Below, in pieces: positions 34,166-62,797 of a DNA stretch of 64,000 bases. The position numbers and the translations under genes are program-made. Every line of letters begins with the position of its first letter. The stretch's first letter is position 1. The notes under the pieces were generated by a model that saw only the letters and a list, made by a program, of their open reading frames with translations, searched no databases and was not told where the DNA came from. Origin of the DNA: Dehalococcoidia bacterium (GTDB lineage Bacteria; Chloroflexota; Dehalococcoidia; DSTF01; WHTK01); NCBI GenBank assembly GCA_965197795.1, contig OZ240228.1, positions 171,765 to 235,764 of the forward strand, given 5' to 3'.

Positions 34166-34240
34166 GCGGGAGTAGCTCAGTGGTAGAGCACCTCCTTGCC
34201 AAGGAGGGGGTCGCGAGTTCGAATCTCGTCTCCCGCTCCA
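34166..34240 (+). tRNA. tRNA-Gly (anticodon GCC)
   Basis: 75 nt: GCGGGAG acceptor stem pairs with CTCCCGC; D-loop AGCTCAGTGGTAGAGC; anticodon loop TTGCCAA; T-loop GGTTCGAATCC-like (GAGTTCGAATCTCG); 3' CCA encoded. Confidence 0.9.
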
Positions 34241-34344
34241 CGACTAATCAGGGCGCACGGCTCCAATTCAGAACCTGGGTAAAACTCGGGGCAAGAAAGG
34301 ATTGGCCGTGCGTCCTTCTGTTAGCAGCTTGCAGCCCCGACCCC

Positions 34345-34470
34345 TAATTACCTCCCTCTCGTTCGCGAACAAGACGAGTTGCTACTGCGCGAGTGGCTCC
34401 TCGTACTCAAGGGCGACGGTCGCTCCCCCAAGACGCGGACTCTACTAACGGCCACTAGCAGGTCGGCCAT
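34345..34470 (+). pseudogene. Possible tyrosine-recombinase (phage integrase) N-terminal remnant adjacent to tRNA
   Basis: Reads ...VREQDELLLREWLLVLKGDGRSPKTRTLLTATSRSAI*, resembling the SAM-like N-domain pattern (L..fL..L...g.Sp.T...Y). It terminates after ~42 codons into AT-richer non-coding DNA. By-eye similarity only. Confidence 0.3.
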
Positions 34471-34651
34471 TTGATTACAGTACAGGCGTGCTAATATGGT
34501 ACCCATGCGAAGGACATGTAAGTGAGCATCCCGTCCCAATAGCACCGAATCTGTCAGACAACGAAGAGCACTTCCGAGCGCTAGCTAGTCCCTCGTGGTT
34601 GCCCGAACGGCATTGCCGAAGGGGATATAGCGCTTGTCTTGAAGCAGGAAG

Positions 34652-34671
34652 TAGTACATGTGTGCTATAAT
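34652..34671 (+). promoter_or_regulatory. Candidate imuB promoter: extended -10 TGCTATAAT overlapped by imperfect palindrome TAGTACATGTGTGCTA
   Basis: The only strong -10-like element in the 240-bp AT-richer gap upstream of the imuB GTG (~45 nt upstream). The palindrome could be a LexA-type operator, since the imuB-dnaE2 cassette is classically LexA-regulated, but the consensus for this lineage is unknown. Confidence 0.3.
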
Positions 34672-60238: not shown

Positions 60239-60308
60239 AAGATCCGGCACGGTAAATGACCCCAAGCCTACGTACCAGAAGCTAACCGCCTGAGCACGGA
60301 GAATCCTT

Positions 60309-62385
60309 ATGCGAATACTCATGTGTCCACCTCAACACTTCGGTGTCGAGTACGTGATCAATCCATGGATGCAAGGCAATGTCGGTGCGGGGTCGGCTTC
60401 GAGAGCCCTGTTGCAGTGGCAGGGCTTGCGCGAAATCCTCGAGGAACAGGCGGCCGTCCAGACCATCGAGTCGATCGAAGGGCTACCCGATATGTGCTTC
60501 GCCGCAAATGGCGGTTTCGTCCTGGAAGACGTCTTCGTCCCTGCGGTGTTCAGCGTTCCGCAACGCAGCCCCGAATCGGCTCTCTACACATCCTGGGCGG
60601 AAAACAACGGTTTCAGAGTCGTCCAGTTACCCGTCGACCACGCCTTCGAGGGCGAGGGCGATGCGCTCTGGTGGCCAGATAGTGAACCCATCCTTTGGGC
60701 GGGATACGGTGTTCGAAGCAGCCTCGAATCTCATCGCGATCTATCCGAACTGCTGAACGTCGAAGTCGTTTCGCTGCGCTTGGTGGACGAGCGGTTCTAC
60801 CATCTTGACACGTGCTTCGTACCGCTCCCCGAAGGTCGAATCATGTATTTCCCCGCCGCGTTTGACGACCGCTCGCGAGCTGTTATCGAGAAGCACGCGC
60901 GTCCGGAAAATCGGATCGAGGTGGGCGACCGGGACGCGCTCAATTTCGCTTGTAACGTCGTCCGCTTGGGTAAATCATTGATAACCAATGCTGCCTCCGA
61001 CGAGCTTCGGACTGCACTGGATAAATGGGGATATGTCGTCCGAACCACCCCCATGGATGAGTTCATGAAGGCCGGCGGGGCCGCAAAGTGTCTATCCTTG
61101 CTGCTCGATCAAGCAACGCCGGACACCTCCACATTCAGCCGACGCGAGCCGGCAGCCTCTCCGATTTCTACCGAAGTAGTCGACCTCAGAGGTCATCTCC
61201 TAGACGATGGGATACTGACCCGAGCGCTTGACGCCGTGACCCTGTCCGGCGGGAGTTTCCGGTTGGAGAACTTCCGCGCTGGAGAGCGTAGCGACCAGAT
61301 GAGCCATGCTCGTTTTGCCGTGAGCGCGCCGGAAAAAAGCACGCTGGACGAGATCATCGAGCAGCTACAACGCTATGGCGCAGAGACCGCTTCCGAGACA
61401 ACGTCCGCTCTACTAACAAGTGTTACGCAAGACGGGGTTGCCCCTGAGGACTTCTACTCCTCGACGATCTACCCGACCGATATTCAGGTTGATGGCCGGT
61501 GGATACCGGTTGATCGCCAACGGATGGATGCGGCGATCGTCGTCGACACCAAAGGCACTCCGAGCGCCGTCTGCATGCTGATGCGCGACCTCAAAAGGGT
61601 GACCTAGTCGTCTGTCACGCAGACGGCGTACGTGTTCGTCTCCCCGATACCCGTCGCGCAGAGCGCGAATTTGCGTTCATGAGTGCCGGCGTCTCGAGCG
61701 AACGTCGAGTCGAAAGTGACATCGAAAGCTCGCCTGGGAGATGCGGCGCATCCGCGCAAGAAAAGGTCGTATCGTGGTCGTGGCCGGCCCGGTCGTCATC
61801 CACACGGGCGCGGGTCCTCACCTCGCGAAGCTCATTCGGAACGGCTACGTACAGGCACTCCTGGCCGGCAACGCCTTAGCCGTACACGACATAGAAACGA
61901 ACCTCTTCGGCACGTCTCTCGGCGTTGATTTGAAGCGGGGTTTAGGGGTCCAGGGCGGACACCAGCACCATTTGAAGGCCAGCAATCGCATACGCCAGGC
62001 CGGATCCATCCAGGAAGCGGTCGCGGCCGGCATCGTCGATGAAGCCGTAATGTACGAATGCGTTCAAGCCCAGGTACCTTACGTACTGGCAGGTTCCATA
62101 CGTGACGACGGTCCGTTACCCGAGACCGTGATGGATCTCATCGATGCGCAAACTGCCTATGCGGATGCGATTAGAGGTGCCGATATGATCCTCATGTTGT
62201 CTTCAATGCTGCACGCTATCGGAACCGCCAAGATGACGCCCGCGGGCGTAAGGCTAGTGTGTGTGGACATCAACCCGACCGTCGTTACGAAACTCGCGGA
62301 CCGGGGTAGCCTCGAATCAACCGGCATCGTTACCGACGTCGGACTCGTCCTCAATCTTCTCACGGCGCGTCTTCTCGACAACTAG
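60309..62385 (+). CDS. ArgZ/AgrE-like arginine dihydrolase: amidinotransferase-fold (guanidino-modifying enzyme) N-domain + LOR/SDH-like C-domain, interrupted near 61600-61740
   Basis: The N-terminal ~270 aa have the GME-superfamily 5-bladed propeller pattern (MRILMCPPQHFGVEYVINPWM...YHLDTCF...AAKCLSL with C-terminal catalytic Cys). Track ORF 61741..62385 (VVVAGPVVIHTGAGPHLAKLIRNGYVQALLAGNAL) is LOR/SDH-like. The two are separated by ~130 nt with a stop/frameshift. Confidence 0.55.
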
Positions 62386-62726
62386 GAGAACTTGCCGTAA
62401 AGACTGAACCAAAGCTATCGATAGGTGGATCGCTGGTCACGGTGCAGCGATTCTGTCGTCGAAGAGCGAGGGTGTAAAAACCAAACACGATCGGGCGATA
62501 GTGTCACGTCGTCCGGGCCTGCAGCGCTCGTCTTAGGTTCTCGATCTCGGCCCGTAGTCTCAGCTTCTCGTGCCCACCAGCATTCTGAGTAGTTTCTTCC
62601 CTCAAACCCCGTTCGGAGCCGACCCCCTAATTGACGGTGCTCGCAACTCCCTAATTGCTCGCAGCTTGCATGTTGTATCCAGGTTCCAGAAGCTCGTTAG
62701 CAGCTTGCATTGGACCAGGATAATTA

Positions 62727-62797
62727 CCAAGGAGGGGGTCGCGAGTTCGAATCTCGTCTCCCGCTCCACGACTAATCAGGGCGCACGGCTCCAATTC
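62727..62797 (+). repeat. Direct repeat of tRNA-Gly 3' half plus 30 bp of downstream flank (attR-like)
   Basis: The string CCAAGGAGGGGGTCGCGAGTTCGAATCTCGTCTCCCGCTCCACGACTAATCAGGGCGCACGGCTCCAATTC is identical to 34200-34270; the 5' half of the tRNA is absent here. Confidence 0.75.

Follow-up and report, generated by a model that had tools for sequence, protein, structure and literature searches.

Islands and prophages that enter tRNA genes by means of a tyrosine integrase are well described, mycobacteriophage L5 at tRNA-Gly, with its 43-bp common core over the 3′ part of the tRNA, being the textbook parallel; the decayed tRNA island is likewise a textbook concept. The 64,000-nt stretch of the Dehalococcoidia contig OZ240228.1 analysed here (hereafter the window) holds an island of this common and known kind, bracketed by a 71-bp direct repeat of the 3′ part of a tRNA-Gly(GCC) gene and its downstream sequence. 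Our best explanation, to which we give a probability of roughly 0.78, is that positions 34270–62726 are a genomic island that entered site-specifically at this tRNA gene and whose integrase has since decayed. Elements that retain their attachment (att) sites and have lost the genes for integration and transfer are known as cis-mobilizable elements (CIMEs; PMC5704250), and the best label for the present locus is accordingly that of a decayed, integrase-less, CIME-like island.

The locus resembles L5 and comparable tRNA-targeting elements, whose tyrosine integrases cross over in the anticodon loop, in that the target is tRNA-Gly, the core runs from the anticodon loop through the 3′ end, the intact tRNA stands next to the integrase while a partial copy lies at the opposite end, and the integrase reads away from the tRNA. 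Unlike in L5-type elements, the core is longer, extending 29 bp past the tRNA and into a hairpin; the integrase family is XerC/D-like, 320 aa long and devoid of a separate arm-binding domain; no phage genes are present and the window's own integrase copy is a stub. With the CIMEs of the Streptococcus ICESt1/ICESt3-type islands, the locus shares the retention of attL and attR, the loss of integration genes and the existence of related loci whose tandem junctions would fit accretion. These tandem-type junctions lie on other contigs and at most hint at accretion with a functional element, and no conjugation remnants were seen. Unlike the Streptococcus CIMEs, the island bears no sign of a conjugative ancestor, resides in the Chloroflexota and is at most a candidate for mobilisation. 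The ssrA islands of Dehalococcoides, which belong to the same class, are likewise situated 3′ of a gene for a small stable RNA, the 3′ end of which is repeated directly at their boundaries. They form tandem arrays with 20-bp direct repeats of the ssrA 3′ end, target the tmRNA gene by means of the CcrB-like serine recombinase DsiB, and include members without an integration module that were suggested to be CIMEs or fixed (PMC3146451). The island in the window, in contrast, has a tyrosine recombinase, a 71-bp repeat and tRNA-Gly as its target, and thus falls outside the ssrA islands.

The evidence starts with the tRNA itself. The tRNA-Gly(GCC) gene at 34166–34240 (+ strand), spotted as intact by a first-pass annotation made from the sequence alone, is the sole tRNA in the window, and ARAGORN and Rfam agree on it. 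Its 3′ part (42 nt) together with 29 nt downstream of the tRNA forms an exact direct repeat of 71 bp in the same orientation (34199–34269 and 62727–62797), which brackets 28.5 kb; identity, length and orientation were as first annotated, and the left coordinates (34200–34270) had been off by one. The match reaches 74 nt with one mismatch in the anticodon loop (TTGCCAAGG versus TTACCAAGG), so the similarity begins within this loop, and no DNA similarity was found outside the 71-bp core on either side of the two copies. The tRNA is intact at the left end only, the right end holding a partial copy. A repeat that lost its exactness beyond the tRNA body would have spoken for dropping the idea of integration, and here it stays exact for 29 bp beyond.

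A 71-bp exact match cannot have arisen by chance in 64 kb. Moreover, two contigs from another sample, L001 and L050, which belong to the same species and are 99.6–99.7% identical to the window, carry the left junction with 100% identity over 34120–34500 (L001) and the right junction with the same 71-bp core and the same arm (L050). Since both junctions recur in an independent assembly, the repeat structure is neither a chance match nor an assembly artefact. A misjoin at the 71-bp repeat is a familiar hazard to consider in a metagenome-assembled genome (MAG), all the more as the left edge of the repeat coincides with the end of a short Logan contig (L002); with the same sequence found across both junctions in the other sample, it is hardly credible.

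The first-pass annotation had also cautioned that a Rieske oxygenase paralog just outside the right repeat might betray a local duplication, in which case the right copy would owe its existence to a segmental duplication of the tRNA region and not to integration. Rieske oxygenase paralogs do lie on either side of the right repeat, and the Rieske-domain coding parts of these two LigXa-like genes share a 112-nt inverted similarity of 79% (55754–55865 versus 63887–63998). Yet the inner and outer oxygenases are just 39% identical in protein, nothing beyond the 71 bp is shared at the DNA level, and the arm ahead of the right copy is one that other genomes conserve at their att sites. The caveat therefore falls away, and a duplication is very improbable. 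LigXa-like Rieske paralogs are numerous in such genomes, with three of them within 20 kb in L011, for instance.

The sequences around the two core copies resemble those of att sites. Directly 3′ of the tRNA stands a long hairpin (Table 1), the 5′ arm of which lies inside the 71-bp core; its 3′ arm holds a Shine-Dalgarno-like AAGGA and the start codon of the integrase gene (int), a placement suggesting that the hairpin could both end the tRNA transcript and limit int translation. This hairpin is kept in about 11 genomes (L003, L008, L010, L041–L049, L052); its outer stem is invariant (GGGCGCACG / CGTGCGCCC) and its inner stems vary by lineage. At 10 att sites from other genomes, the structure folds in spite of differing inner-stem sequences; RNAalifold on a 9-sequence alignment recovered only the invariant outer stem, meaning that the inner stems rest on individual folds rather than on formal covariation statistics. 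Rfam holds no family for the hairpin. At the right core copy with its own flank, the hairpin is incomplete and does not fold (z = +1).

Beyond the hairpin, the right arm (P′) carries two short motifs, B followed by A (consensus CGACCCC(C)TAATT), which occur in this same order in L003, L008, L041, L042, L046, L048 and L052. The entire series of tRNA-Gly, hairpin, B, A and int is found in L003, L008, L041, L042/45/47, L048 and L052, and partly in L010 and L044. At the other end of the island, the left arm (P) precedes the right core and is conserved ahead of partial tRNA copies in L003, L043, L046 and L049. Within the window, motifs A and B are present at both island ends only (3–4 matches versus 0.4–0.9 expected), and both island-end arms recur at tRNA-Gly in about 11 Dehalococcoidia genomes. 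Conserved arms at both ends and the junctions in L001 and L050 bear out the attL(tRNA)…attR signature of integration that had been read from the repeat alone. Motif A (CGACCCCCTAATT, 62620–62632) agrees at 11/13 positions with the left core end in reverse complement (AAGGAGGGGGTCG, 34201–34213 / 62729–62741), and on account of this match the flanking motifs may be extra core-type half-sites for an arm-less integrase instead of classical arm sites.

In L043, L046 and L049, which have no intact tRNA, arm, partial tRNA, full hairpin and right-arm motifs are contiguous, and L049 has an int N-domain as well. Such a layout is what would be expected of an attP or of a junction between tandem elements. 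These attP-like junctions were seen in other organisms only. About 800 bp downstream of the one in L046 is an N-terminal fragment of an IS110-family transposase (about 2500–3020; 916–1440 when reverse-complemented), which adjoins a BoxB/PaaA-like oxygenase gene.

Right after the tRNA, where an integrase would be looked for, the first-pass annotation had described a remnant of ~42 codons with the flavour of a recombinase N-domain. The remnant is real and homologous to integrase N-termini, at a length of ~57 codons, and this homology is established through relatives only because Pfam returned no match for the stub alone, even at E<=10. Reading from TTG 34302 (GTG 34308 being the alternative start), the stub encodes MAVRPSVSS… and begins MAVRPSVSSLQPRP; the loss of one C in motif A causes a -1 frameshift, after which it continues PNYLPLVREQDELLLREWLLVLKGDGRSPKT… to a stop at 34474. 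Of the SAM-like N-domain, the stub retains no more than the first helix, preceded by the N-terminal extension, and everything past that helix is missing. L001 is identical across the stub, so the truncation is real. Over 31 aa, the stub is 81% identical to residues 6–36 of P0121, a protein with Phage_int_SAM domains, and it is 61% identical to residues 15–45 of the intact integrase P0250 (E=4e-12).

In the closest species representative, L008, the sequence can be aligned throughout the stub and differs mostly at third codon positions. The int gene of L008, readable in one frame over ~105 codons, is broken by just one in-frame stop and has hence decayed differently from the copy in the window; when the stop is replaced by K, full-length Phage_int_SAM_1 and SAM_4 domains are detected with E about 5e-4, just under the gathering score. 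Database homologs of the L008 fragment are all truncated (69–154 aa), several being annotated as integrase N-domain. A profile made from such truncated homologs and searched against 1.84 billion representatives found one close full-length protein, P0250 (E=1e-45), which has 320 aa and both tyrosine-recombinase features, i.e. Phage_integrase (3.8e-28) and SAM-like N-domains. It is XerC/XerD-like, without a separate arm-binding domain, and on its contig (L052) the 3′ part of tRNA-Gly is followed by the hairpin, motif B, motif A and finally int, which is the arrangement seen in the window. Judged by sequence, the stub is the decayed N-terminus of a tyrosine integrase of this XerC/D-like family.

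P0250 aligns over both domains with XerC-like 4a8e, XerA 5hxy, XerD 1a0p and Brujita Gp33 5vfz (E=1e-23 to 9e-8) and is ~30% identical to mycobacteriophage tyrosine integrases, a similarity to Xer or ‘simple’ recombinases that is family-level only. Particular to its group are the specificity for tRNA-Gly and an N-terminal extension encoded over motifs A and B.

Apart from the stub, the window lacks any sign of a recombinase of this type. Pfam and NCBIfam scans of all large open reading frames (ORFs) detected no recombinase catalytic domain, and a XerD probe detected no remnant of a catalytic domain, be it in the window or at the att-bearing loci. No integrase is encoded in the 64-kb window or in an 11-kb extension provided by L050 (together ~75 kb of the 3.2-Mb genome), and none of seven metagenome contigs with a tRNA-end/hairpin junction carries an intact one. 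The same scans of the window revealed no transfer, relaxase or type IV secretion genes, the sole transposase being that of an insertion sequence (IS) of the IS1595 family. A prophage was considered and rejected, given that no phage structural, lysis or replication genes were detected by the scans and that the arm and hairpin patterns are absent from viral contigs.

The view of the element as immobilised, as first annotated, is reasonable in light of the missing catalytic domain. Its rival is an island that is still mobile as a non-autonomous, CIME-like cassette, with an intact P0250-type integrase from elsewhere in the 3.2-Mb genome or from an incoming element recognising attL and attR and excising or moving the island, either in trans or in cis. 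The two att sites are undamaged and match each other perfectly, both arms are conserved, an intact integrase of the family exists in nature, P-core-P′ junctions are known from other contigs, and CIMEs are an established concept (PMC5704250) that has been put forward for the Dehalococcoides ssrA islands (PMC3146451). Nevertheless, the window and its extension contain no integrase, no circular junction of this island was seen and almost all family members in databases are truncated, and we regard continued mobility as unlikely.

Comparison with relatives suggests that occupancy of the site is variable. A profile of the left-flank gene retrieved 35 loci from species representatives, and the combination of BrkB, HIBADH, anchor gene and tRNA-Gly(GCC) is retained in six related genomes. 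The genes downstream of the tRNA differ in each: HxlR and MFS in L003; lysyl-oxidase-like, LigAB and luciferase-like genes in L008; an AAA ATPase and a GGDEF/EAL protein in L010; a Rieske oxygenase in L011; and hypothetical genes in L004. None of the six has island genes at the tRNA-Gly locus, the opposite of the shared gene order without a repeat that would have argued against integration. In L003 (6542–8972 on contig_26219 of ERZ25039533 = CAVYAY010000002.1), a 2.3-kb ‘mini-island’ with an HxlR regulator and an MFS transporter, but without an integrase, is framed by tRNA-Gly, hairpin and right arm on one side and by the left arm and a decayed, heavily diverged partial tRNA on the other. It is an older, smaller example of the island type found in the window.

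The island is also atypical in composition. In 2-kb windows, its GC content is 60.3% versus 63.4% for both flanks (p=7.6e-4), and its tetranucleotide distance to the flank mean is 19.8 versus 12.5 (p=0.004), with the strongest deviation at 40–56 kb. A uniform composition together with a remnant devoid of recombinase similarity, which would have undone the integration model, is contradicted by the data on both counts.

Several observations weigh against site-specific arrival of the whole segment. The composition of the island is mosaic, with the segments around dnaE2 (36–40 kb) and putA (56–60 kb) being flank-like. A clean empty site, in which tRNA-Gly is joined to the sequence right of 62797, was not found; the six relatives are without the island genes, and in no available relative does the tRNA abut that sequence. 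L050 lengthens the right flank to 11.4 kb, adding nitrile hydratase, MFS and further genes, but this flank is near tRNA-Gly in no available relative, and no right-flank synteny could be matched. L011 was rejected as an empty site: the best homolog of the right-flank oxygenase stands beside its tRNA-Gly, but in inverted orientation and with no more than 64% identity. Many relatives possess the right-arm sequence, and part of the architecture may therefore be old and vertically inherited instead of newly arrived. Finally, the type of vehicle is not readable from an island that has no transfer, replication or phage genes, and the sole intact integrase of the family sits on a 1.3-kb contig (L052), no complete active element having been seen. 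Because of the missing clean empty site and the mosaic composition, arrival as a single element is suggested rather than proven.

The serious alternative is an old hotspot with turnover in place. Here, the att arms and the int stub would be inherited relics of an element that had integrated at tRNA-Gly in an ancestor of this Dehalococcoidia clade, and the 28.5 kb would have been built up by several later events (accretion, deletions, IS activity, recombination) without ever arriving as one element. The hairpin, the right arm and the int stub are indeed common to many divergent genomes, with int breaking off at a different point in every one; in L003, the two arms enclose just 2.3 kb and a decayed partial tRNA is present; tandem-type junctions occur in L043, L046 and L049; and the island is mosaic in composition and contains an IS insertion. 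However, the repeats of the window are 71/71 identical, as opposed to the heavily diverged copy in L003, which points to a recent recombination event in the window's lineage. In addition, no internal att relics mark accretion boundaries: a sensitive search of the island and the right flank for degenerate att sites gave chance-level matches only, leaving such boundaries not placeable. Turnover at an old hotspot overlaps with our best explanation, the difference being one of degree, and we consider it possible but clearly less than probable.

If the island did enter site-specifically, the following course of events would account for its anatomy. By a crossover in or near the anticodon loop, the island would have been inserted by a XerC/XerD-like (‘simple’) tyrosine integrase whose gene lay at the end of the element next to the tRNA. 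The element would have brought a replacement for the 3′ part of the tRNA along with the downstream hairpin, so that the original 3′ part was displaced to the far end, where it would now form the 71-bp attR with the element's left arm ahead of it. Later, the integrase gene would have been cut down to ~57 frameshifted codons, leaving the island presumably unable to excise by itself. Its present state would then be that of an att-bounded, integrase-less cassette with accessory cargo, comparable to a CIME.

The right site may have a more complex history. The repeat stops abruptly inside the conserved hairpin, suggesting that this site derives from an older P-core-hairpin junction such as those in L043, L046 and L049, the rest of the hairpin having later been deleted. 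Such a derivation would mean that the tRNA-Gly was occupied more than once.

A further idea is that tRNA-Gly(GCC) in the soil Dehalococcoidia clade serves as a standing and partly domesticated site of cassette exchange. The hairpin, motifs A and B and the int ORFs reduced to an N-domain might be kept by selection, possibly because they terminate tRNA transcription, act as an insulator, or provide an arm-binding regulator or an immunity factor. Rare intact integrases would then exchange, in trans, cassettes of 2 to 28 kb that have att boundaries and no integrase of their own. If true, the loci would represent a recurrent, partly domesticated system instead of independent wrecks, a reading that we hold to be quite doubtful.

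Irrespective of its exact history, the locus brings to light an integrase and att family that is specific for tRNA-Gly and had not been described before. Its hosts are uncultured soil members of the Dehalococcoidia (Chloroflexota), about whose mobile elements little is known. It also places an imuB-dnaE2 cassette, genes of proline and arginine catabolism and a selenoprotein radical-SAM cluster within an acquired and now probably fixed island. The 71-bp repeat and the conserved arms provide a usable signature to delimit islands in related MAGs.

Table 1. Features of the tRNA-Gly(GCC) locus, the island and its right flank in the window
Feature	Position	Strand	Basis or remark
Sigma-70-like promoter TTGGCG-17-TATAAT upstream of tRNA-Gly	34127–34155	+	Consensus match only
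tRNA-Gly(GCC), intact; integration target (attB, left part)	34166–34240	+	ARAGORN, Rfam
attL copy of 71-bp core (anticodon loop to tRNA 3′ end + 29 nt)	34199–34269	+	Identical in L001
Conserved long hairpin (~70 nt) directly 3′ of tRNA	34250–34317	+	-36 to -39 kcal/mol, z about -5
Tyrosine-integrase remnant, ~57 codons	34302–34474	+	Homology to P0121/P0250 N-termini; identical in L001
Right-arm (P′) motifs: B GTTAGCAGCTTGCA (34320–34333); A CGACCCC-TAATT (34338–34349), one C short of consensus	34320–34349	+	Conserved order
Non-coding spacer; homology to other int loci ends here, deletion scar	34475–34713		Comparison with int loci
imuB (Y-family polymerase-like), N-terminus in other frame	34714–35899	+	Pfam/NCBIfam; frameshift near 34815–34830
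dnaE2-type error-prone DNA polymerase III alpha	36114–39401	+	Pfam/NCBIfam
Methyltransferase fragment (39394–39912); hypothetical 243-aa ORF (40219–40950)	39394–40950	+	Domain scans
Ferredoxin reductase (41057–42274); Rieske ferredoxin (42328–42939)	41057–42939	-	Domain scan
Compositionally atypical cluster	42764–48326		Domain scans, composition
B12/radical-SAM CUAEP-tail selenoprotein gene	45023–46451	-	NCBIfam
Ser/Thr kinase / AAA16 / TPR regulator in pieces (54235–55326, 52570–54138, 51887–52588, 49144–49395)	49144–55326	-	Domain scans
IS1595-family element, 50-nt terminal inverted repeats (82% complementary)	49572–51907		Inverted-repeat and domain scans
IS1595 transposase	49644–50603	+	Domain scan
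RelA/SpoT small-alarmone-synthetase-like (toxSAS-like) passenger gene of IS1595 element	50750–51859	-	Domain scan
Rieske (LigXa-like) oxygenase, inside island	55517–56842	+	Domain scan
PutA (proline dehydrogenase / P5C dehydrogenase)	57326–60238	+	Domain scan; also in L050
ArgZ-like / LOR-SDH gene, two ORFs (60309–61607, 61741–62385)	60309–62385	+	Same split in L050
Left arm (P) of att site, 108 bp, before right core; motifs A 62620–62632, A′ 62644–62656, B′ 62657–62670, B 62696–62709, then ...GGATAATTA	62619–62726	+	Homologous arms in L003, L043, L046, L049
attR copy of 71-bp core (tRNA 3′ part without 5′ half, + 29 nt)	62727–62797	+	Identical in L050
Right-flank Rieske (LigXa-like) oxygenase, runs off window (= P0129, 457 aa)	62862–64000	-	Domain scan, L050

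The cargo (Table 1) agrees with the gene list of the first-pass annotation, including the IS1595 element, as judged by Pfam and NCBIfam. At its left end, the N-terminus of imuB (MRIAFVSIPRFP…, 34714–34830) is out of frame with the rest of the gene; as two independent assemblies show this frameshift and its position is not a homopolymer, it is probably real. There is no gene resembling imuA ahead of imuB. Scattered 1-nt indels between the window and L001/L050, in contrast, split different genes in each assembly (a NUDIX gene at 32654 in the window; FAH, kinase and Rieske genes in L001/L050; regions 32654 and 27499–29822). They are probably long-read assembly or sequencing noise, and apparent pseudogenes in such MAGs need care. 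Since several frameshifts differ between the assemblies in this way, we make no claim of cargo-wide pseudogenisation; the imuB frameshift and the int truncation alone are common to both assemblies. Exact-sequence look-ups of PutA and HIBADH from the window returned no match because start codons or strains differ.

Further along the island, the IS1595 element is inserted in the kinase/AAA16/TPR regulator, the C-terminal piece of which is 49144–49395. The compositionally atypical cluster comprises FGE-sulfatase-like (+), ATP-grasp L-amino-acid ligase (+), B12/radical-SAM (-), NifU-like (-) and DUF169 (+) genes and a DUF4202 fragment (+). Its radical-SAM gene scores 560 bits (cutoff 500) with the NCBIfam model ‘CUAEP/CCAEP-tail radical SAM (seleno)protein’. 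The apparent stop of this gene is an in-frame TGA in …EGWFC-TGA-AEP…, the next in-frame stop lying near 45023, and going by this context the TGA is the predicted selenocysteine of the CUAEP tail. A GGAGCagttaGCTCC hairpin located 14 nt after the TGA may be the corresponding selenocysteine insertion sequence (SECIS) element.

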